From a virus, in the IMG/VR virus record IMGVR_UViG_3300009086_000001: a stretch of DNA of 43,544 bases, one strand, 5' to 3'. This document shows, piece after piece, positions 14,088-43,544 of this stretch; the stretch's first letter is position 1, and each line of letters starts with the position of its first letter. The position numbers were made by a program, and so were the translations under genes. A model generated the notes under the pieces. The model did not search any database, was not told the DNA's origin, and saw only the letters and a program-made list of their open reading frames with translations.

Positions 14088-14119
14088 GAGCTTGGTTTTA
14101 ATTTGCCAAGCTCTTTCTT
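14088..14119. terminator. Hairpin between the convergent arms (putative bidirectional terminator)
   Basis: gagcttgg (14088-14095) and ccaagctc (14106-14113) form a perfect 8-bp stem with a 10-nt loop, followed by tttctt on the + strand. It abuts the ssb stop codon on the - strand. Confidence 0.55.
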
Positions 14120-14567
14120 AAAATGGGATAGAATCATCCAGTTCAACAACCTTAGAACCTTCAAATTGATCTCTAGCAGTTTCTTCAATGCTTTTATTTT
14201 GATCTTGCTCTTTATTTCCACCCTTACTACCCAGCATTTGCAAATTAGAATTAAAGTTTTGTAAAACAATTTCAGTTGTGTATTTATCAACCCCGTCTTT
14301 ATCAGTCCATTTTCTAGTTTGCAAAGCTCCTTCGATATAAAGTTTTGAACCTTTTTTGACATATTGCTTGATAATTCCAACTAAGCCTTGAGAGAAAACA
14401 ACAACTCTGTGCCACTCAGATTTACTTTTACGCTCACCAGTTTGTTTGTCTTTCCAACTTTCAGAAGTAGCAATTGAGAAATTAGCAATCTCTTTGCCAT
14501 CGTTAGTTTTTCTAATCTCAGGATTTTGTCCTAAATGTCCAATTAATTGTACTTTATTTAAACTCAT
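14118..14567 (-). CDS. ssb: Single-stranded DNA-binding protein
   Basis: OB-fold N-terminus 'MSLNKVQLIGHLGQNPEIR...WHRVVVF', a flexible Gly/Gln-rich linker, and the canonical acidic tail 'DDSIPF'. Confidence 0.9.
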   Translation of the reverse strand: MSLNKVQLIGHLGQNPEIRKTNDGKEIANFSIATSESWKDKQTGERKSKSEWHRVVVFSQGLVGIIKQYVKKGSKLYIEGALQTRKWTDKDGVDKYTTEIVLQNFNSNLQMLGSKGGNKEQDQNKSIEETARDQFEGSKVVELDDSIPF

Positions 14568-15404: not shown

Positions 15405-16472
15405 TTAATTCCTATTCTTACTAACCCTCAAAGCCCCTCTTTTATCAAACTTAGCTATGTAATCAGTGCCAACAACACTAATATTTGTGCCCATACCGTG
15501 AATTATTTTACAATTAGTTGATTCTAATTCAGTTTTAAGCTTAGTAAATTCATTATTAATAATGCCTCTTTCACTTAATAAATAATCTAGCTCATTATTA
15601 GCTCTTATTTCACCGTATTTTTCAGGATACATTTTAGCTAACATTTTCTTTTCACGCATCAATTTATCTTTGTTATCGCTTAGACTAGGTAGTATTACTT
15701 TATCCATTGCCTCTTGGAAGCGTTTTAAAGCTAGTTTACAAATGTTTTGAATAGTTTTATTGGCTTTGTAGGTGTAGGTGTAAAGGTTGTAATATTTATC
15801 TAACTCTTGATAACATTCATCTACAGCATCATATTCATGCTCTTTATTATATTCTATATAATTAGCAAAATTTAACTTACCCAAAACCTTGCCTTTAAAG
15901 AAATCATTATCAAATTCTTTTTCTTTTGGTGCTAAACAAGCTAACAATCCCCAATCATTACCACAAACCATCATATTATATTGGAGTTGGAATAGGTATT
16001 GGAATTTAGCCCCTGCCTCTGCTTCAAAATTAAAAGCGTAAGGTGTTGTTTTCACTTCCAACATACCTTTGCTAGCCTCGACCTCTTTTTTATCATAATC
16101 AATAAAATCTTCTTTAGCTTCAACAAAACCATCAGGAGAACAAGCCGCCAACTCGTGAATATCAGAATTAATTATAAAATCTTTTGAACCAGTTGCAACA
16201 AAATTATTGTTTTCTTGGTTGATTCTGTTTATAATATAATCCTCCATTCCTAACCCAAACTCACTACATACTTGACTAATTGGATCTGGTTTTACATCAA
16301 ATTTCTTTTCAAGATAAACCTCAAGAGCAGTTTTAAAGCTTGTCTCGTTTTCAATACCTATTTGAGCCAATTCTTTTTTGCAATAGTGCAGGGCAATTGA
16401 GAATATTTCAGAACCACCAATGTATTTACGCTTTTCTGTTAGCCACTCTTGGCTTTGTTGTTTAATTGTCAT
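15405..16472 (-). CDS. YqaJ-type (lambda Exo-like, PD-(D/E)XK) recombination exonuclease
   Basis: The N-terminal 'QSQEWLTEKRKYIGGSEIFSI' matches the YqaJ signature, and there is a later 'MLEVKTT' E-x-K motif. It lies close to recT. Confidence 0.75.
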   Translation of the reverse strand: MTIKQQSQEWLTEKRKYIGGSEIFSIALHYCKKELAQIGIENETSFKTALEVYLEKKFDVKPDPISQVCSEFGLGMEDYIINRINQENNNFVATGSKDFIINSDIHELAACSPDGFVEAKEDFIDYDKKEVEASKGMLEVKTTPYAFNFEAEAGAKFQYLFQLQYNMMVCGNDWGLLACLAPKEKEFDNDFFKGKVLGKLNFANYIEYNKEHEYDAVDECYQELDKYYNLYTYTYKANKTIQNICKLALKRFQEAMDKVILPSLSDNKDKLMREKKMLAKMYPEKYGEIRANNELDYLLSERGIINNEFTKLKTELESTNCKIIHGMGTNISVVGTDYIAKFDKRGALRVSKNRN

Positions 16473-16730: not shown

Positions 16731-17084
16731 TTATTTACTTATCCAATCTAATAAATTTAAACTACTCTTTGTTAATAACTTCTTAGCTTTATTTTTAAAA
16801 CCTTTATTATCCAAATTTTCAGCAAATAAATAAATTACTGACAAAGGAATATCAAACACTTCTGAATATTTTTGCAAAGTTTCATTAGTTGGGTTTTTAA
16901 TCCCTTTTTCAATTTGTGAAATATAAGAGCGACTTATGTTTAACTTTTCGCTTAATTCTAATTGAGTTAGCTTGTTAAAAGTTCTTATGTGTTTTAATAT
17001 TTTTGGTAAACTACCCACCTGACTTTTTATATTTAAATTAAAAATGTAACTACATATTAACTTAATGTTTCTATATGTCAACAA
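16731..17084 (-). CDS. XRE-family helix-turn-helix transcriptional regulator (start uncertain)
   Basis: 'LKHIRTFNKLTQLELSEKLNISRSYISQIEKGIKNPT' is a classic HTH_3 motif. The maximal ORF begins with TTG at 17084. An in-frame GTG at 17018, downstream of a promoter-like site, may be the real start. Confidence 0.8.
   Translation of the reverse strand: MLTYRNIKLICSYIFNLNIKSQVGSLPKILKHIRTFNKLTQLELSEKLNISRSYISQIEKGIKNPTNETLQKYSEVFDIPLSVIYLFAENLDNKGFKNKAKKLLTKSSLNLLDWISK
17054..17081 (-). promoter_or_regulatory. Putative sigma70-type internal promoter for the XRE gene
   Basis: Minus-strand TTGACA (17081-17076), 16-nt spacer, TAATAT (17059-17054). The -35 box overlaps the TGA stop of the upstream gene. 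Confidence 0.4.
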
Positions 17085-17311: not shown

Positions 17312-17571
17312 ATTTTTTTTCTTGTTATCGTTTCAATTTGTTCTATTAATTCAACTTCATCAAATAGATTTACCTTTGACTGAAAAAGCCTATGCTTGCC
17401 GCCTAAGTCTGTAGTAACATAATCTCCTTCAAAAACATCTTCGCTTTTATCTGTTATCACTCTTGTTACCCTATGGGGTGTTATTTGTATATATTGCAAG
17501 GTATTTTGGTTATGAAAATCACAATATTTTATTACTGAAAAAACTTGCTGTCCTACTTTATATTTACTCAT
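17308..17571 (-). CDS. Hypothetical protein
   Basis: The ATG at 17571 lies within GATGAGTAA, overlapping the recT stop, and is preceded by GAGGGGGGG. The track start at 17583 is less likely. Confidence 0.5.
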   Translation of the reverse strand: MSKYKVGQQVFSVIKYCDFHNQNTLQYIQITPHRVTRVITDKSEDVFEGDYVTTDLGGKHRLFQSKVNLFDEVELIEQIETITRKKI

Positions 17572-18295
17572 CCCCCCCCTCAAATTCTAAATTATCAGGA
17601 ATATTAGCGGTTTTACTAAAATCTTGCAATTCAAAATCTTTATTATCATGTTGTTCTAAATTAGATAATTGTTGAATAGAGCTAAAATGTATCTTGCAAG
17701 CTCTTCTAATTAAAGCCACTTTCGCCTTTTCCTCAAACCAAGCATTCCAAATAAAGGCTTGTTTTGCACAACCTTTAATTTTGTTAATCTCATCAATATT
17801 CATCACCTCGCAAAAGCCTAGTTTCTTTTCGCCAAGTGAATAAGAAATGTAGCAAAACCCCCCTATTATTTTATCTTTTTTTGCAAAAGGATTTTCAACA
17901 TCTAAACTATAAGTTGTAATATCACCCTCTTTTTTTAAAGTAAATTTATCACCTTCATAAACCAACCTACAATCAATATTAGCATCTGGATACGCTCTTT
18001 TAATGGCATAGATAAACCCACGATAACCAACTCGCAATTGAGCTTCATTTTTATATTTTACTAAATGGCAATGCTGCCTCCCATCTATTTCTAAACCTAA
18101 ATCATGAGCTTGTTTAATGCAGCTTACTATGCTATTAACTGTACACTCTGATAAATCTTGTTTACTTCCTTTTGTTTTCTGAATTTCATTCAAAATACTC
18201 GTGATATATTTATCTTTACTGTTAGCAAAGATATTACCTATTACACTAGATTGAGATAATCCATCTTTAATTGTCAATATTCTGTCTTTGCTCAT
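17564..18295 (-). CDS. recT: RecT-family single-strand annealing protein
   Basis: 243 aa. 'CHLVKYKNEAQLRVGYRGFIYAIKRAYPDANIDCRLVYEGDKF' matches the conserved RecT core. A YqaJ-type exonuclease is encoded nearby. Confidence 0.7.
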   Translation of the reverse strand: MSKDRILTIKDGLSQSSVIGNIFANSKDKYITSILNEIQKTKGSKQDLSECTVNSIVSCIKQAHDLGLEIDGRQHCHLVKYKNEAQLRVGYRGFIYAIKRAYPDANIDCRLVYEGDKFTLKKEGDITTYSLDVENPFAKKDKIIGGFCYISYSLGEKKLGFCEVMNIDEINKIKGCAKQAFIWNAWFEEKAKVALIRRACKIHFSSIQQLSNLEQHDNKDFELQDFSKTANIPDNLEFEGGDE

Positions 18296-18488: not shown

Positions 18489-18671
18489 TTAATAGATCCT
18501 GCTCCTGCTCCAGCTCCCGCTCCTGCTCCCGCTCCAGCTCCTGCTCCCGCTCCTGCTCCTGCTCCCGCTACAGCTCCAGCTCCCGCTCCAGCTCCTGCTC
18601 CAGCTCCTGCTCCCGCTAATGCTCACGTTGCATCTTTTTTCAAAACCCGAACGAAGTATTGCTTGATTCAT
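18489..18671 (-). CDS. Doubtful ORF across the hexanucleotide repeat, (Gly/Arg/Trp/Cys)-Ser dipeptide repeats
   Basis: This is the only ATG-initiated frame on the operon strand: '[19 protein letters not shown](GS/RS/WS)n..RIY'. The track extends it to an ATG at 18791. The pattern of variable sites argues against this frame (see findings). Confidence 0.25.
18498..18623. repeat. GC-rich hexanucleotide tandem repeat (CCN-GCT) x 20, plus one degenerate unit
   Basis: Counted by eye: 20 consecutive units from 18498 to 18617 (unit 13 is ACA-GCT), then AAT-GCT. Only the third base of CCN varies. Confidence 0.95.
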
Positions 18672-18672
18672 G

Positions 18673-18697
18673 TTATTTAAATTAATATTAGTTAGTA
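18673..18697 (-). repeat. Conserved leader element, copy C
   Basis: ttatttaaattaatattagttagta lies 1 nt from the ATG at 18671. Confidence 0.8.
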
Positions 18698-18803
18698 TTC
18701 CAAATTTTCTTAAAACTATCCGCAATCTTACTTTTCTCCACCTTTGAGCCTTTACGCTTCTTAAATAGTTTGAAAAAGTTCTTGATTGCATTAGTTAGTT
18801 TTC

Positions 18804-19217: not shown

Positions 19218-19577
19218 TTAAAAATTTTGAATTATTATTTTACCTTCTTCACCCCACCATTTAGAGGCTTCAAATCTATGAACTACGCTATCATCTTTTA
19301 AAAGTGCATCATTGATAGACTTTACAAGATTATCTAAATCTGGTTTTTCTTGGTGGGGAGTATTTTTCATGTATTCCTTTTTTTTCTTACTCCAACTTCT
19401 TGGCATTGGAATATAAAAGCATATTTTATAATTTCCTCCTAATTCAAAATTTCTTGCTTGTAACCTTAATTCATCACAAAAGGCTCTATAAACTAAGACA
19501 CACTTTCTTTTTTTCCATTTATCGCTTTGTGTCATTCTAGGCTTTGCGACTGGATTTATTTTGATTACTATTGGCAT
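19218..19577 (-). CDS. rusA: RusA-family Holliday junction resolvase
   Basis: 119 aa. 'KPDLDNLVKSINDALLKDDSVV' matches the catalytic D-x-D-N...D-A-L motif of RusA, and the N-terminal 'PVAKPRMTQSDKW' is typical of the family. Confidence 0.75.
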   Translation of the reverse strand: MPIVIKINPVAKPRMTQSDKWKKRKCVLVYRAFCDELRLQARNFELGGNYKICFYIPMPRSWSKKKKEYMKNTPHQEKPDLDNLVKSINDALLKDDSVVHRFEASKWWGEEGKIIIQNF

Positions 19578-19587
19578 TAGAATAGAG

Positions 19588-19728
19588 TTAGTTGCTCCTT
19601 TTATAGTTATTAATTAAAGACCTTACTTTATCTATTAACTGGAGAGGAACTGAAATTCTTTTTGAATCAAGGCTTTTCTTTGTATTGCTTGGTCGTCCTG
19701 CACCGATTCTTTTTCCTCCTCTAGGCAT
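19588..19728 (-). CDS. Small basic protein (46 aa; not in ORF track)
   Basis: The ATG at 19728 overlaps the upstream TAG (ATGCCTAG). 'MPRGGKRIGAGRPSNTKKSLDSKRISVPLQLIDKV' has an N-terminus like that of 18804..18956. Confidence 0.4.
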   Translation of the reverse strand: MPRGGKRIGAGRPSNTKKSLDSKRISVPLQLIDKVRSLINNYKRSN

Positions 19729-20932
19729 TTTCTTTTAATTTTTGTAAGGTTTTTATTTGTTTATATTTTTCATAAGCCTCTGATTTTGGCTGTGTTTGAC
19801 CAAGACCTTTACAATAATAGTCATTTCTTAAAATACAGCGTGCCATTCTCTTCCAAGAGGGAGCCCATTGCTTCACCTCTAGGTCATGAGGTGCTTTATC
19901 TGGTATTGTATTGTAACCTCTTTTCTTCCATCCAACCATAAATTTTTTAAAACGCTCTTTGTAATGATTCTGCATCTTCTGCGGTAACGATCTTAATAGG
20001 TAATTTGTGTATGATTGCCAAGTGTGATTATTTGGCTTTGAAATGTCGTTATATCCATTTATATTCCCTCTCTCTTGGACATATAAAGAACCACTATTTA
20101 CCCCACTTACTCTATTTAGTAGTTTATACCAAATATCTGGCTCTAAAATATGATATAGCCACAACCCCCTTTTTTGGTCATCTCCAAATGGCTGACAAAG
20201 CCTCTGATTACTAAGCTTTACCCCCGCCATAGTCATCATGTCATATATTTTGTTATGTTGTAATTCTTTGTTCTTAGAATGGAAAATCCAGATATCCTCT
20301 GTTCTCCAATCATAAATTGGATAAACATTATATAGATAGTTAGATAATTTCGTTGTCCATTTCCAGCCGTTGTAAGTTAGATCCTTTTTTGATGATGTAA
20401 TAGCTCTATAACGATGTAAACTTTCATCGGCTCTAATCCCAATAAACCCAGCCGTTAATCTATCTTTAGCATACCATTTACCAAATATAACCATAAATTC
20501 TTCAAACTCCATTTTTGGAACATAAAAATCATATTGATCTAAATTTGCCGCTTCTTCTGGTTTGTCTCTTATCCATATATCTTTATTATCCTCATCCCAA
20601 CAAACCCATTTCGGCTGATAATCACTTACAGCATTTCTTAATTGCAATTCTCCACAAAACCAATGTAAATCAATGTTGTCTTTATACTCTTCTACTATTT
20701 CCCTTAAATGATCAATTGTATTCTGGTATTGAGCCTCTAAATCAATAATTAATAAGCCAACTTTCTTATTTCTCTTTCTAGCTTCTTGCATAACTAAATG
20801 AGTCATCACAGAACTATCTTTCCCACCAGAAAAAGAAATGTAGTAATTATCAAAATTATCAAAAACTTTAGATATCCTTTCTCTTGAAGCATTTAATACA
20901 CTTTCTTTTAAGTAATGTTTTTTTACTGTCAT
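19721..20932 (-). CDS. PAPS-reductase / ATP-pyrophosphatase superfamily protein with C-terminal extension (IbrA / YbdN-like)
   Basis: P-loop 'YISFSGGKDSSVMTHLV'. It is 403 aa with a Trp/Lys-rich C-terminal third like DUF3440. It is adjacent to a ParB-like gene, as in E. coli ybdM/ybdN and ibrB/ibrA. Confidence 0.75.
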   Translation of the reverse strand: MTVKKHYLKESVLNASRERISKVFDNFDNYYISFSGGKDSSVMTHLVMQEARKRNKKVGLLIIDLEAQYQNTIDHLREIVEEYKDNIDLHWFCGELQLRNAVSDYQPKWVCWDEDNKDIWIRDKPEEAANLDQYDFYVPKMEFEEFMVIFGKWYAKDRLTAGFIGIRADESLHRYRAITSSKKDLTYNGWKWTTKLSNYLYNVYPIYDWRTEDIWIFHSKNKELQHNKIYDMMTMAGVKLSNQRLCQPFGDDQKRGLWLYHILEPDIWYKLLNRVSGVNSGSLYVQERGNINGYNDISKPNNHTWQSYTNYLLRSLPQKMQNHYKERFKKFMVGWKKRGYNTIPDKAPHDLEVKQWAPSWKRMARCILRNDYYCKGLGQTQPKSEAYEKYKQIKTLQKLKENA

Positions 20933-20933
20933 A

Positions 20934-22067
20934 TTAATATAATTCTATTTGTCTACCAGTGCAAAGAGCGTCATCTAAACTAACGTCATCTCTGCTGTTT
21001 TTTTTTAACCACTCATTAAGATATTCTAGGGCTATTGAATTTGCTTTATCTTGTTGATCTTTTGATAACTTAAACCACGCTCCACTATAAGAAGAAGGTA
21101 TTCCAGAGGCTATGCAAACAGAAGCCTGACCAAGCCACGCTATCCTATTCATTGATTTATTAGTTAAATAATGTTCGCAACTATTATTCCACTCCTCAAT
21201 AACTCTTTTTAATGAACTTCTAAACAAGTTTTCATCTGTTAAAATTCTTATATATTCTAGTTCACACTCTTCATTAGTCCAGCCATCTTTTATATTTTTA
21301 TAAAATCCTGCCTTGTGACATTCCCACTTATCAAAAGTATGAAATATTCTAGTATCATCATTCTCATTTGGTATTTTATAAAGCTTCATTTCTTCGCTCA
21401 CTTCATCAGTTAAGATTTCATAGTTATTTTCCATATAGTCGGACGACTCCCAAGCTCTAGAAAAATCGCCATCATTAAATAAATGTTCTAACCCAGATAT
21501 TTGACAAAGCCTCAAGACTTCTTCTTCATCCATACCCAATTGCTTAGCAATCCTTTTGTTAGCCCAGTTACGATTTTTTAACTCAATAACAATTTCACTC
21601 ATTGCATTGATTTGGTGCTTACCTCTAGCTCTGTTATGTCTAATAGTTGAAGCAATACGGTCGTTTTTATTTTGCTGCTCTTTTCTTATCCCAACAACAG
21701 GTAAATAGCCATTAACTTTTTTTCTTACAATATCAGATTCTCTACCAACTCTATTTCTGTGAAAACCATCTATAACCTCTACTTTTTCTTTTTCTGGATT
21801 CTCCCACGTTACAATTGGCTGAGTATAGCCATCATTAATAATAGAAAGCTCCAAGAGCTGCATTTCTGGCGGGGCTACTTTATTTGGGTTATAATCATTA
21901 GCAACCACATCATCATTAACAATCCACTTAACAAAATCTACTGGCTCACTTTTAAAAGGACATAAATTATGTATATGCTCTCTTATTTCGTTAATAATAT
22001 CTATTTTCTCTTTCAGCTCTTTATTTTCCAACAAATCACTTATCATTTTTTTTATTTCGTTTTTCAT
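20934..22067 (-). CDS. ParB-like nuclease-domain protein (IbrB / YbdM-like) fused to an unrecognised C-terminal domain
   Basis: 'VEVIDGFHRNRV' and 'ASTIRHNRARGKH' are ParB/sulfiredoxin-fold motifs. An HTH-like 'NKRIAKQLGMDEEEVLRL' follows, and the last ~170 aa are Cys/Trp-rich ('WECHKAGFY', 'NRIAWLGQASVC'). Confidence 0.7.
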   Translation of the reverse strand: MKNEIKKMISDLLENKELKEKIDIINEIREHIHNLCPFKSEPVDFVKWIVNDDVVANDYNPNKVAPPEMQLLELSIINDGYTQPIVTWENPEKEKVEVIDGFHRNRVGRESDIVRKKVNGYLPVVGIRKEQQNKNDRIASTIRHNRARGKHQINAMSEIVIELKNRNWANKRIAKQLGMDEEEVLRLCQISGLEHLFNDGDFSRAWESSDYMENNYEILTDEVSEEMKLYKIPNENDDTRIFHTFDKWECHKAGFYKNIKDGWTNEECELEYIRILTDENLFRSSLKRVIEEWNNSCEHYLTNKSMNRIAWLGQASVCIASGIPSSYSGAWFKLSKDQQDKANSIALEYLNEWLKKNSRDDVSLDDALCTGRQIELY

Positions 22068-22075
22068 TTTATAAA

Positions 22076-22110
22076 AATTGGTTAATAACTTTTGATTAAA
22101 TTAACCAATT
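22076..22110 (-). promoter_or_regulatory. Perfect 11-bp inverted repeat just upstream of the ParB-like gene
   Basis: aattggttaat (22076-22086) and attaaccaatt (22100-22110) are separated by 13 nt and lie 9 nt from the ATG at 22067. A TTGACT lies on the minus strand at 22125-22120. Confidence 0.5.
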
Positions 22111-22227
22111 AATTCAAAGAGTCAAGTATTTTTTAATAAATAGTGTTTTTTCTAAAAACAAAACCAACCAGTAATTATTGTTAATAAAAGTAAGTGTATG
22201 TTATAATTCATCTTCTCCTATTTTGAT

Positions 22228-22551
22228 TTATTTAGCATCTCTGTAATCCATATATTTAATAATATCATCAACATTTCTAATAGGAAATTTCTTACCTGCT
22301 TTTAAATGATAATAATAGCTATCACTTTCATCAGTTTCAAATAAAAGATAGCTAGCTAATTCATCGCCTAATATTTCATCAATCAAGCCCGCAACCCCTG
22401 TATAATATTCATCATCTATTGATTGAATGTGAGGCGTAAATTCTGGAATTAAGTCTCTAATTTTATCATTTAGTTTGCTATATTTTTTTTGTTTAGCGTG
22501 TAAAAGTCTAAGTAGTGCTAAAGCTTCTTTTTGTATTTTATTCATATCCAT
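22228..22551 (-). CDS. Hypothetical protein
   Basis: 107-aa ORF. Confidence 0.5.
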   Translation of the reverse strand: MDMNKIQKEALALLRLLHAKQKKYSKLNDKIRDLIPEFTPHIQSIDDEYYTGVAGLIDEILGDELASYLLFETDESDSYYYHLKAGKKFPIRNVDDIIKYMDYRDAK

Positions 22552-23099: not shown

Positions 23100-23663
23100 T
23101 TAAGTTAATAAAAGTGGTTGTTTATCTCTTGCAATACCCTTTAAAGTATTATAGAATAAGGCTTTATCTTGGTCTAGTTCTTTTTTTAAATAAACTGCCA
23201 TTTTTTTAATGCGCTCATCCGATAATTCTTTTTTTACATTGCAGTAAGTATCAATCATCAATTTAATATGAGAATTAAGGGGGTTTTTATAGCGCTGTGG
23301 AAACGAAATTAATAAATTTAGATCATTACACCAGACACATACTGTGGATGCGTATAGACTTAATTCTTTCTCATAATCTTTCTTTCTTTTCTCAATATCT
23401 TCATCAGTCAATGGTTTTTCAACTAGAATTTCTAGCCATTGGGCAAGAGAGGGGTAACCTCCCCATTGTAAGTTAAATTTTTTATGCCATTCATCATTTG
23501 TCAAAAGCCAAAGTTGCTGGAATTTCTTTCTAATTTTTTCGTCTGGCACTTTGTCAGTTTGAGACTGAATTATATTTAAAATATTTTCAAACCCTTTATT
23601 GAGCTTAAAGTTGAAATTCTCTGCTGTTGTCTCAAATAGTGATTCTAGTTTTAATTTTTCCAT
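23100..23663 (-). CDS. Hypothetical protein
   Basis: 187-aa ORF overlapping the upstream gene by 13 nt. Confidence 0.5.
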   Translation of the reverse strand: MEKLKLESLFETTAENFNFKLNKGFENILNIIQSQTDKVPDEKIRKKFQQLWLLTNDEWHKKFNLQWGGYPSLAQWLEILVEKPLTDEDIEKRKKDYEKELSLYASTVCVWCNDLNLLISFPQRYKNPLNSHIKLMIDTYCNVKKELSDERIKKMAVYLKKELDQDKALFYNTLKGIARDKQPLLLT

Positions 23664-24283
23664 GCTAACCTTGATTTTTCTGTTTTAAAGTTGGTTTTAG
23701 GCTCAAAAACTCCCGTGTAATTGCTTTCAATAGAGTTTTCCAAAGATTCATTTGCTGCGCCTATTTTTTTGTTTTCAAATTTTATTAATTTGTTAATTAC
23801 CAACTCAACCGCTTTTTCTGTCGGTGTTGCTTTTTTCTTTTTTCTCATCTTCAAATATTCATTCCACAATTCAGCATCAACAAAATCTGGAATTTGAATT
23901 TCTTTTTTTTCTATTTTTTTTATTATTTCTTTAGAAATAACATTATCATTATCATTATCATTTACATTTACATTTACATTATAGGCTTTTTTGGGTTTTG
24001 AAAAACCCACTGGGTTTTTTGGGTTTTCGTTTTTTTTAGGCCTTCCGCCCTTTTTGCCGTTGGCTCTGTTGGCGTTTGCTTTATTTTTATATTTAATATT
24101 ATCTAGTCTAAATTGGTTCTTAAAAAATAAAAAAAAGGGATAAATTTTAGAATTAGGTTTTGGCTCTATTTCATCAATTTGATATGTAAAAATTGCATCA
24201 TATAATTCACCTTTTTCTGTGACAGATAAATGCCTAGTTGGTTCATAAAATGATTTAAAAAGTAGGAATGATTCTTTTGACAT
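23651..24283 (-). CDS. Possible replication organiser / initiator-like protein
   Basis: The N-terminus 'FLLFKSFYEPTRHLSVTEKGELYDAIFTYQ' followed by 'RANGKKGGRPKK' resembles DUF6291 / Lin1244-type phage replication-associated proteins. The C-terminus reads 'ELWNEYLKMRKKKKATPTEKAVE'. Tentative. Confidence 0.35.
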   Translation of the reverse strand: MSKESFLLFKSFYEPTRHLSVTEKGELYDAIFTYQIDEIEPKPNSKIYPFFLFFKNQFRLDNIKYKNKANANRANGKKGGRPKKNENPKNPVGFSKPKKAYNVNVNVNDNDNDNVISKEIIKKIEKKEIQIPDFVDAELWNEYLKMRKKKKATPTEKAVELVINKLIKFENKKIGAANESLENSIESNYTGVFEPKTNFKTEKSRLAWKN

Positions 24284-28058: not shown

Positions 28059-28739
28059 ATGACTGACGATAAAAACAACACTGGCGACTGCAACACTGGC
28101 CACTACAACACTGGCTACTACAACACTGGCTACCGCAACACTGGCTACCGCAACACTGGCTACCGCAACACTGGCTACTACAACACTGGCTACTACAACA
28201 CTGGCTACTACAACACTGGCGACCACAACACTGGCCACTACAACACTGGCTACTACAACACTGGCGACCGCAACACTGGCCACTACAACACTGGCGACTG
28301 CAACACTGGCTACTACAACACTGGCTTCTTTAATACCAATACTCCTAAGGTCACTATTTTTAACAAAATTTCAAATCTAAAGTTTGATAGTGAGGAGGTG
28401 ATAAAAATGAAAAATATAATCTTGAATAATATCAAGGGTGTATGTGTTTGGGTTTATGAATCTGATATGACGGATGAAGAAAAAGAAGAAAACCCAACTT
28501 ATAAAACAACTGGCGGTTATTTAAAGAAAAGAGATTATAAATATTGCTGGAAAAAGGGATGGGGAAAAATGAGCAATAAAAATAAAGAGTTTATTAAATC
28601 TTTACCTAATTTCTGCCCTAAAATATTTGAAGAAATAACAGGTATTAATGCTAATACTGATAGCAAAAGAAAAGTTACTTTGGAGTTGAATGATGAGCAA
28701 TTGGATAAAATTAATAAGATTTTACAAGAAAATGATTAA
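28059..28739 (+). CDS. Pentapeptide-repeat protein (17 x N-T-G-x-x) with a conserved C-terminal domain
   Basis: Translation is 'NTGDCNTGHYNTGYYNTGYRNTGYR...NTGFFNT', then 'MTDEEKEENPTYKTTGGYLKK...LPNFCPKIFEEITGIN'. I recall this architecture from other phage and prophage proteins of unknown function. Confidence 0.7.
   Translation: MTDDKNNTGDCNTGHYNTGYYNTGYRNTGYRNTGYRNTGYYNTGYYNTGYYNTGDHNTGHYNTGYYNTGDRNTGHYNTGDCNTGYYNTGFFNTNTPKVTIFNKISNLKFDSEEVIKMKNIILNNIKGVCVWVYESDMTDEEKEENPTYKTTGGYLKKRDYKYCWKKGWGKMSNKNKEFIKSLPNFCPKIFEEITGINANTDSKRKVTLELNDEQLDKINKILQEND
28077..28331 (+). repeat. 15-bp tandem repeat x 17 (aacactggc + variable hexamer)
   Basis: Counted from the sequence. The 9-nt aacactggc part is identical in every unit; the variable part is gactgc, cactac, tactac, taccgc, gaccac, gaccgc or ttcttt. 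Confidence 0.95.
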
Positions 28740-43314: not shown

Positions 43315-43544
43315 CTATCCCACAAGGTTTTGAATTAGTGCAAGATCAACCAACTATTCCAGCAGGTTTTGAGATTGTCGAGCCAGAAGGCTTTTTAACT
43401 AAAGCTGGAAGATTCGCAGGACAGGCAGCTATGGAAATACCTGTCGGAATGGGGCAGTTAGCCGTTGGCGCAACTCAATTAGGGGCGGAGATATTAGGAG
43501 CAGAAGATTTTGCAGGAAGAATAGGGCAACAAGTTAAAAAAGAA
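43299..43544 (+). CDS. 5' part of the junction-spanning internal virion / ejection-like gene (continues at 1..1662)
   Basis: The ATG at 43299 overlaps the previous gene by 16 nt. 'MAENVTIPQGFELVQDQPTIPAGFEIVEPEGF...' runs in frame into the repeat, and therefore into base 1. Confidence 0.6.
   Translation, partial: MAENVTIPQGFELVQDQPTIPAGFEIVEPEGFLTKAGRFAGQAAMEIPVGMGQLAVGATQLGAEILGAEDFAGRIGQQVKKE
43422..43544. repeat. Terminal direct repeat, right copy; identical to 1..123
   Basis: Same 123-bp string as the start of the window, compared by eye. Confidence 0.95.

Follow-up and report, generated by a model that had tools for sequence, protein, structure and literature searches.

The IbrA/IbrB proteins of Escherichia coli ECOR-9 and the YbdN/YbdM proteins of strain K-12 rank, as an enzyme pair of unsolved chemistry, among the most widespread in phages and enterobacteria, and the pair is routinely mislabelled as a partition protein, as a ‘co-activator’ or as an auxiliary metabolic gene (AMG) of sulfur metabolism. 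In K-12, ybdNM is a chromosomal operon repressed by the LysR repressor CitR, and IbrA/IbrB genes have also been found in the Heimdallarchaeal virus HeimV2 (PMC8813620). More generally, ParB-type partners assist DNA-modifying enzymes, as in the DndB/DndC and DpdB/DpdA systems (PMC10853773, PMC12839542). In this work, we describe a pair of the IbrA/IbrB type in the IMG/VR virus record IMGVR_UViG_3300009086_000001, the whole 43,544-nucleotide (nt) stretch of which is referred to hereafter as the window. A first-pass annotation of the window had pointed to two leftward genes encoding a ParB-like and a PAPS-reductase-like protein, the former ending in an extra domain, and had proposed them as a candidate module for DNA modification or anti-defence. 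Our results indicate that this extra domain, here named X, defines a third module of the system.

The two leftward open reading frames (ORFs) were recovered as annotated, 1 nt apart and encoding 403 and 377 amino acids (aa), respectively (Table 1); their junction reads TAA-T-ATG, and the genes are translationally coupled. Their assignment to the IbrB/IbrA (YbdM/YbdN) type holds on full-length similarity to the E. coli proteins, together with the PP-loop, the DUF3440 region, the ParB motifs and the helix-turn-helix (HTH). The motifs quoted in the annotation were all present, with SFSGGKDSS at residue 33 of the IbrA protein, and VIDGFHRNRV, STIRHNRARGKH, WECHKAGFY and NRIAWLGQASVC at residues 98, 140, 248 and 307 of the ParB protein, designated here as ParB-X.

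The C-terminal domain of ParB-X had been described as a Cys/Trp-rich region of ~170 aa that could not be placed. The domain is real, far beyond chance, but its core comprises about 140 aa behind an acidic linker, and its cysteines are kept only among close relatives. No named counterpart was found for it either, although it proved to be more than an extension, namely a separable module linked to both partners. Residues ~225-377, used alone as the query of a first search, retrieved 151 proteins, and an exhaustive profile search yielded 785 X clusters at 50% identity (E<=1e-3), most members being stand-alone proteins of 115-230 aa and none carrying a Pfam domain or a telling name; X is encoded on 514 IMG/VR contigs. 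The family signature is H..DKWE..aGfY ... W..S.E..LtN...N(R/K).A(W/F)LGQA, and its deep form, KWE...G.Y / W..S.E..L.N...N(R/K).A(W/F)LGQA, is present in the window protein, E26 and W70 (numbered as in the 154-aa query) alone being invariant across distant members. A Cys/His metal site, considered on account of C27, C74 and H76 being invariant in close relatives, was dropped, as all three positions vary among more distant members.

X is acidic (pI 5.4), and its AlphaFold2 (AF2) model is confident (predicted local distance difference test score, pLDDT, 90.3; predicted TM score, pTM, 0.85), displaying seven helices. The model matched no fold in the PDB (best E=2.2, TM below 0.25), and its one match in BFVD was an unnamed viral protein of 116 aa. 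Likewise, a Pfam scan of 88 X members revealed no recurrent family except fused DUF3440 tails; DUF1367, with a weak match in one protein, did not recur among the 88 members and was rejected as the identity of X. A profile built from these 88 members found nothing among PDB sequences, X had no counterpart in PHROG, and no paper describing it was present in the literature found. Judged by its homologues, X is a previously unnamed, widespread and separable third module of the IbrA/IbrB system.

The linkage of X to both partners was apparent across genomes. X is fused to ParB in all 80 of the closest viral loci, and IbrA follows ParB-X within about 30 nt in the 79 of 79 with room downstream. The same order of ParB, X and IbrA, with X either fused or split, was found in 23 loci from metagenome-assembled genomes (MAGs) of many phyla, by a scan with alignment A1. 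In Microcystis phage Mwe-JY13 and contigs L002-L004, X has a gene of its own, placed between those of ParB and IbrA, and the split falls at the acidic linker in Mwe-JY13, L002, L108, L109 and L112. A second architecture, in the order IbrA, Ectoine_synth-like cupin, ParB and X, occurs in L088, Pseudoalteromonas phage XCL1123 (L115) and Mycobacterium phage Gaia (gp103-gp106; L116), the cupin being an optional fourth component, either free-standing or fused to ParB. Gaia harbors, in addition, gp105, an unknown protein of 124 aa encoded between ParB and X. Furthermore, in P0136, P0142 and P0174 the fusion partner of X is a duplicate of the final ~70 residues of DUF3440: residues 145-218 of P0142 and 146-214 of P0136 align to IbrA residues 322-394 with 35-38% identity (E=2e-10 and 8e-11, respectively), and sub-threshold DUF3440 matches were obtained with these fusion proteins. 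Because of the fusions, the splits and the complementary charges, we propose that X contacts the tail of IbrA.

When all the ORFs of 107 loci were clustered, the two cassette genes were the only conserved ones, each being present in 101 loci, as compared with 19 for the next family; the ParB/IbrA pairing holds in 101 of the 107. A conserved extra partner (sulfur donor, methyltransferase or nuclease) was ruled out on this basis. Nine of the 10 commonest neighbour families are related to replication or recombination, and include exonucleases, Erf, SSB, primase/helicase, O-like or DnaD-like initiators, and helicases. Among 50,697 GenBank phage records, X was detected in 6 and the IbrB-type ParB in 226, the latter in agreement with the annotated view that the pairing is common in phages. 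The cassette was also found on contigs binned to archaea or to the candidate phyla radiation (CPR), namely L099, L101 (Thorarchaeota MAG), L104 (Nitrososphaerota MAG), and L095, L105 and L107 (CPR MAGs), which could be viruses of those hosts or mis-binned phage contigs. Separately, positions 2798-2971 of L113 encode, inside a 286-aa ORF, a fragment resembling X (57% identity to query residues 39-96); L113 is a 7-kb locus on which neither ParB nor IbrA was detectable; it may represent the X domain in a different context.

The N-terminal part of ParB-X (residues 1-206) is 49.5% identical to E. coli YbdM over the whole of YbdM (E=6e-70), the match including the HTH and the terminal FS.AW, and the window segment ends at FSRAW exactly where YbdM ends. 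Besides the motifs VIDGFHRNRV and TIRHNRARGKH (residues 98 and 140), this part displays DGYTQPIV at residue 79 and the HTH around residues 155-200. The ParB-like identity proposed in the annotation is carried by evidence at the family level: ParB-X matches phrog_2159 ‘ParB-like’ over residues 29-218 (E=1.1e-65); Pfam ParB_N (PF02195), narrowly missed by the window protein itself, is matched by 22 of 23 relatives; and the family profile finds solved ParB/Noc/Spo0J structures (4umk, E=1.5e-6). The HTH-like segment was likewise borne out, by the YbdM alignment and the domain matches of relatives. In the profile alignment, DGYTQPIV...VDGFHRNRVG falls on ParB boxes I and II (HGLLQPV...AGERRLRA), so that the nucleotide pocket GERRxRA (GxxRxR) of CTP-binding ParB reads DGFHRNR here; D100, G101, F102, H103 and R104, as well as R143-H151, are invariant in the family. 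A further match of the ParB part is to the ParB region of phrog_498 ‘DNA methyltransferase’, which corresponds to phage ParB-methyltransferase fusions (E=5.6e-6). The identical ParB-X sequence is recorded on 15 contigs, where its sole label is ‘hypothetical protein’. In P0130, a 637-aa homologue retrieved in the exhaustive search, box I of ParB is interrupted by a 266-aa intein lodged between DGF and TQPIV. The first residue of the intein is Cys, its last two are His-Asn, the residue next to its end is Thr, and its LAGLIDADG motif reads LAGFLDGEG. Inteins are typically inserted at functionally critical sites.

The IbrA protein matches PAPS_reduct (PF01507; E=6.2e-15, 56.1 bits, cut-off 22.5) and DUF3440 (PF11922; E=1.2e-34, 120 bits, cut-off 25), both above the curated cut-offs and in line with the annotated families, and it matches phrog_2302 end to end (E=1.5e-89). 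It is 39% identical to E. coli YbdN over its full length (residues 1-392, E=7e-104), 39% to the annotated IbrA of PhiR5_2 and 36% to that of CHPC877. At least 7,984 clusters are related to it, the best 120 of which are 79-88% identical to the window protein, and these close homologues come from many metagenomes. For the pair, each of two separate searches yielded at least about 8,000 protein clusters. Database names of the homologues include ‘PAPS reductase’, ‘phosphoadenosine phosphosulfate reductase’, ‘IbrA family prophage gene co-activator’ and ‘DUF3440 domain-containing protein’; as the annotation had stated, the biochemistry of the pair is unsettled, being resolved neither by any of these names nor by any paper in the literature found.

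Across 27 diverse IbrA homologues, the PP-loop SGGKDS is intact in 25 and reads SAGKDS in the other two, and 43 residues are invariant. The essentially invariant loop and these residues point to a catalytically competent enzyme, and the alignments indicate that the IbrA family is huge and constrained. Regarding the cysteines, C374 is universal, C246 is present in 24 of the 27 homologues and C111 in 21. A DndC-like iron-sulfur (Fe-S) site, suggested by three invariant cysteines in a two-clade alignment, was dropped as a feature of the family because C374 alone proved universal in the broader sampling. The DUF3440 half is strongly basic by charge calculation. The AF2 model of the protein (pLDDT 74.7) is confident in the N-terminal alpha/beta domain only, for which Foldseek returned CysH, CysD, FAD synthase, NcsA, TtuA, LarE and TilS; as modelled, this domain is a generic adenine-nucleotide alpha-hydrolase fold. 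The DUF3440 part had no Foldseek match among solved folds, and sequence searches of the window ParB-X and IbrA proteins against the PDB gave nothing meaningful. The protein scored 23-31 bits with all the curated CysH, CysD and DndC models, the cut-offs of which range from 154 to 400; for CysH, the values were 29.5 against 154 (PRK02090), 26.4 against 254.2 (TIGR02057) and 23.2 against 165.1 (TIGR00434). The C-terminal ECG[LI]H motif was not found in IbrA. By these equivalog scores, far under the cut-offs, and by the absence of this motif, IbrA is not CysH, CysD or DndC.

Upstream of the cassette, the inverted repeat noted in the first-pass annotation does exist and its arms are perfect, yet it is weakly above chance: it is the sole one of its kind in the window, with about 1.04 expected genome-wide and a local P of about 0.02. 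It ends 8 nt ahead of the ParB-X start codon and might serve as an operator or form a hairpin in the mRNA. Arms of at least 9 nt were found upstream of 8 of 85 distinct related cassettes, as compared with 2.5% of shuffles, the repeat sequences being different; the repeat of the window was not found in the more distant relatives L007 and L010. A repeated operator was ruled out, since the motif had no additional sites above chance elsewhere in the genome, and scans for sigma-70 promoters and terminators were not above shuffles. In a comparison with the related contig L005, the 200 nt covering the leader (22048-22247) showed 100% identity; the average in the flanking genes was about 85%, and the X-coding segment, with 74-78%, was the most diverged part of the cassette. 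This identity makes a regulatory leader plausible on the basis of one relative, and it could reflect either constraint on the leader or a recombination patch.

The domain logic and the context suggest a possible DNA modification or anti-defence activity. Our tentative reading, in which we place somewhat less than even confidence, is that the cassette, a two-gene, three-module member of the IbrA/IbrB type, encodes an ATP-dependent machine that modifies nucleic acid and works on DNA while the phage replicates. The ParB-HTH part would bring the complex to DNA in a nucleotide-dependent manner, and may autoregulate its expression via the inverted repeat in its own leader; the acidic X would grip the basic IbrA tail, coupling the enzyme to the targeting subunit. 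IbrA would adenylate a position on the nucleic acid, which would then be substituted, possibly through C374; sulfur would be the most likely nucleophile, because of the PP-loop and single-cysteine logic of thiolases. The resulting covalent mark would protect or re-programme the phage DNA. Targeting of DNA is suggested by the alignment of the ParB boxes to CTP-binding ParB/Noc, the HTH, the phrog_498 match, the basic DUF3440 and the box-I intein of P0130, and the position of the cassette, between an O-like initiator and RusA/RecT/RecE/SSB, is consistent with the overall reading. Precedents are provided by the ParB-type helpers of DndC and DpdA and by the phage ParB-methyltransferase fusions. 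A bolder proposal, which we consider possible though rather unlikely, is that X constitutes a new fold defining a three-component (ParB, X, IbrA) IbrAB sub-class that installs an undescribed covalent DNA modification, being carried by abundant uncultivated aquatic phages and Gaia-like mycobacteriophages, with X positioning the basic tail of the enzyme or delivering the transferred group.

Several observations weigh against DNA modification. The results presented here fit a DNA, a tRNA or a small-molecule substrate alike, and the nearest solved folds of IbrA include both CysH and tRNA thiolases. In the AF2 model, the DUF3440 part is of low confidence, and the X-IbrA tail contact, although probable, is read from gene fusions and charge. 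X, which occurs in 6 GenBank phage records as compared with 226 for the ParB part, is missing from most IbrAB pairs and is therefore accessory, being confined to a sub-clade. The recurrent neighbours of the 107 loci comprised no sulfur donor (cysteine desulfurase, ThiS-like), methyltransferase, or restriction nuclease or reader, and we know of no DNA modification associated with E. coli ybdNM. The three-cysteine set of ligands that binds the [4Fe-4S] cluster of DndC (PMC10853773) is not conserved in the IbrA family. Finally, the one experimental phenotype linked to the name ibr is the activation of prophage (eib) gene expression, as cited in a passage of PMC4541368.

This phenotype leads to the alternative that the pair is mainly a regulator of gene expression, in which the ParB-HTH part binds specific DNA sites and IbrA is a cofactor-sensing or accessory subunit. 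The name and annotation of the family stem from genetic activation (PMC4490671, PMC8813620, and the same passage of PMC4541368), an HTH is present, the inverted repeat and the fully conserved leader lie directly upstream, and DndB, a ParB-type relative, has been reported as a transcriptional regulator. We regard this alternative as unlikely, given that the invariant PP-loop and the 43 invariant residues of IbrA point to catalysis rather than to sensing, the cassettes reside in replication and recombination modules and not in regulatory switches, and the inverted-repeat motif is not repeated at other sites of the genome. The regulatory and the modification readings are not exclusive, because a modification enzyme could give expression phenotypes indirectly.

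A second alternative, which we find improbable, is that IbrA modifies RNA, for instance by thiolation or another alteration of host or phage tRNA, in order to retune translation or evade anticodon nucleases, with ParB-X in a regulatory or scaffolding role. Foldseek does place the tRNA thiolases NcsA and TtuA, plus TilS, among the neighbours of IbrA, and IbrA combines the PP-loop with a basic C-terminal domain and one conserved cysteine; however, the likeness in fold is generic to the superfamily, with CysH and CysD ranking as high or higher, and the obligate partner is a DNA-type ParB-HTH protein surrounded by DNA replication and recombination genes. With a comparably low probability, and doubtful at best, the cassette could counter host defence through nucleotides or small molecules, its ParB/Srx NTPase and PP-loop enzyme for instance adenylating or consuming a defence signal or the nucleotide pool and leaving the DNA unmodified. 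ParB/Srx proteins have been discussed as nucleotide-degrading effectors of conflict systems (PMC10853773), the optional Ectoine_synth-like cupin of the second architecture suggests small-molecule chemistry, and the genes are placed in an early module. Nevertheless, the PADLOC models gave nothing beyond weak similarity to DndC and BrxP, the HTH and the basic DUF3440 half favour a nucleic-acid substrate, and E. coli keeps a chromosomal copy.

It is very unlikely that ParB-X is a partition or packaging ParB which binds a parS-like site, with IbrA being incidental. Boxes I and II do align to chromosomal ParB, Noc and Spo0J, and the cassette lies just upstream of the terminase gene (L002) or the portal gene (XCL1123) in some relatives; even so, no ParA was found among the annotated genes of the window or among neighbour genes, the ORFs having been scanned in part only, a strict coupling to IbrA, as seen in 101 of 107 loci, would be left unexplained, and the ParB part, stopping at the same point as YbdM, has no C-terminal dimerisation region like that of partition ParBs. 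Lastly, that IbrA is a CysH-type AMG boosting host sulfate assimilation, the usual annotation in viromics, is scarcely credible, as the PAPS_reduct match, the source name ‘phosphoadenosine phosphosulfate reductase’ and the treatment of a DUF3440-bearing viral CysH clade as an AMG (bioRxiv 10.1101/2021.01.05.425418) are outweighed by scores of 23-30 bits against CysH cut-offs of 154-254, a canonical ATP-binding SGGKDS PP-loop, the absence of ECG[LI]H and the obligate pairing with a ParB protein.

The window corresponds to a complete uncultivated phage genome of about 43.4 kb with a GC content of about 32%. An exact 123-nt direct repeat at both ends (1-123 / 43422-43544) indicates a circularly closed, complete assembly, and the same genome of ~43.4-43.5 kb was assembled independently from several public samples. 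A near-identity DNA search of the cassette region against GenBank phages gave no match, and the large terminase is at most 27% identical to that of any cultured phage, which indicates that there is no close cultured relative. The earlier description of a genome without a polymerase was not contradicted by the ORFs scanned, which were only part of the total. ParB-X and IbrA lie in the leftward early module (Table 1), where the genes of 187 and 107 aa are located between the O-like initiator and the cassette. Between IbrA and RusA, the very basic 46-aa ORF overlaps the IbrA stop by 8 nt; no family match was obtained for it, and it is called as a gene in the near-identical contigs L117 and L118 but not in L119, L120 and L122.

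Table 1. Features of the cassette and of the surrounding leftward module; positions refer to the window.
Feature	Position	Strand	Basis or remark
O-like replication initiator	23651-24283		Leftward module
187-aa gene	23100-23663	-	No Pfam or PHROG match
107-aa gene	22228-22551	-	No Pfam or PHROG match
Intergenic leader, 160 nt	22068-22227	-	Upstream of cassette
Inverted repeat AATTGGTTAAT	22076-22086 / 22100-22110	.	Perfect 11-nt arms, 13-nt loop
ParB-X gene, 377 aa	20934..22067	-	ORF
ParB/Srx N-terminal domain and HTH, residues 1-206	21450..22067	-	YbdM/IbrB alignment, ParB/Noc/Spo0J profile
Acidic linker, residues 207-237	21357..21449	-	Charge calculation, net charge about -8
X domain, residues 238-377	20937..21356	-	Unnamed, all-helical (model)
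IbrA/YbdN-type gene, 403 aa	19721..20932	-	ORF
PP-loop (adenine-nucleotide alpha-hydrolase) domain, residues 1-234	20231..20932	-	SFSGGKDSS at nt 20810-20836
DUF3440 region, residues 235-403	19724..20230	-	Pfam; pI 9.8, net charge +16; C374
IbrA C-terminal tail module, residues 322-394	19751..19969	-	Copy fused to X in other genomes
46-aa very basic ORF (MPRGGKRIGAGRPS...)	19588-19728	-	
RusA	19218-19577		Leftward module
RecT	17564-18295		Leftward module
HTH regulator	16731-17084		Leftward module
RecE-like exonuclease	15405-16472		Leftward module
SSB	14118-14567		Leftward module

Two other features of the genome were recorded. A hexanucleotide tandem array of about 20 copies of TCCTGC, with an 18-nt super-period, is located at 18497-18617, where it encodes a (Ser-Gly/Arg/Trp)n tract in a leftward 100-aa ORF (18489-18791), the other strand reading (Pro-Ala)n. 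In the rightward early region, a pentapeptide-repeat protein of 226 aa is encoded at 28059-28739 (+) (Pentapeptide_2, E=2.8e-27; phrog_14105); given that pentapeptide-repeat proteins are able to mimic DNA, this one is a candidate for a factor that counters restriction or protects gyrase.

To the current knowledge on this pair, our work adds a third module, X, with fusion evidence for which parts may touch, and an enzyme set apart from CysH and DndC, and it names tractable cultured carriers, namely mycobacteriophage Gaia (gp103-106), XCL1123 and Mwe-JY13. If the cassette modifies DNA, it would represent a new way for phages to protect themselves and could also supply a new enzymatic tool; if it is regulatory, it would constitute an unusual enzyme-dependent transcription system.

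In comparison with known systems, the window cassette comprises the same two protein families as IbrA/IbrB of ECOR-9 and YbdN/YbdM of K-12, their genes being likewise adjacent and translationally coupled. The gene order differs, with ParB-X first in the window and in all its close relatives and IbrA first in E. coli K-12, CHPC877 and PhiR5_2. Moreover, the 377-aa ParB protein of the window carries an extra ~170 aa (linker and X), whereas the reference IbrB/YbdM proteins are of 171-214 aa and lack X, and the window IbrA belongs to a separate, highly conserved environmental clade with respect to the reference IbrA/YbdN proteins.

The cassette resembles DndB/DndC, and also SspD/BrxP, in combining a ParB-superfamily protein with a DGxHR-type motif and a PP-loop ATP pyrophosphatase of the PAPS-reductase family, which in those systems acts on DNA. 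However, the analogy with DndC-type enzymes drawn in the first-pass annotation is weak. The matches of IbrA to DndC and BrxP models were local and weak (PADLOC DndC, E=8e-8, partial), with 23.7 bits for TIGR03183 as compared with an equivalog cut-off of 290.4; there is no family-wide three-cysteine site; and no DndA/DndD/DndE or SspA/B/C-like partners were found among the recurrent neighbours of the 107 loci or the neighbours in the window. DUF3440, in turn, is part of the window IbrA and not of DndC. With DpdA/DpdB and the phage ParB-DNA-methyltransferase fusions, the cassette shares the theme of a ParB-like NTP-binding module which assists or targets a DNA-modifying enzyme (PMC12839542), the catalytic partner being a PP-loop enzyme in the window and a transglycosylase or a methyltransferase in those systems.

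Regarding CysH and CysD, the N-terminal domain of IbrA displays the same alpha/beta fold, with its best Foldseek matches and the PAPS_reduct Pfam match in common, but the window protein has an intact ATP PP-loop and a basic DUF3440 half of 170 aa. CysH has a degenerate loop, and ECG[LI]H is its catalytic, defining motif. The PP-loop thiolases TtuA, NcsA, ThiI and MnmA have in common with IbrA the fold, the ATP-adenylation motif and a conserved cysteine able to carry sulfur, ThiI and MnmA using persulfide chemistry; in contrast, the window IbrA lacks a conserved Fe-S cysteine triad and THUMP or other RNA-binding domains, and its partner is a DNA-type ParB-HTH protein. Taken together, what is known in this locus is the IbrA/IbrB pair, still unsolved, and what is new is X, a widespread and structurally unmatched third module.

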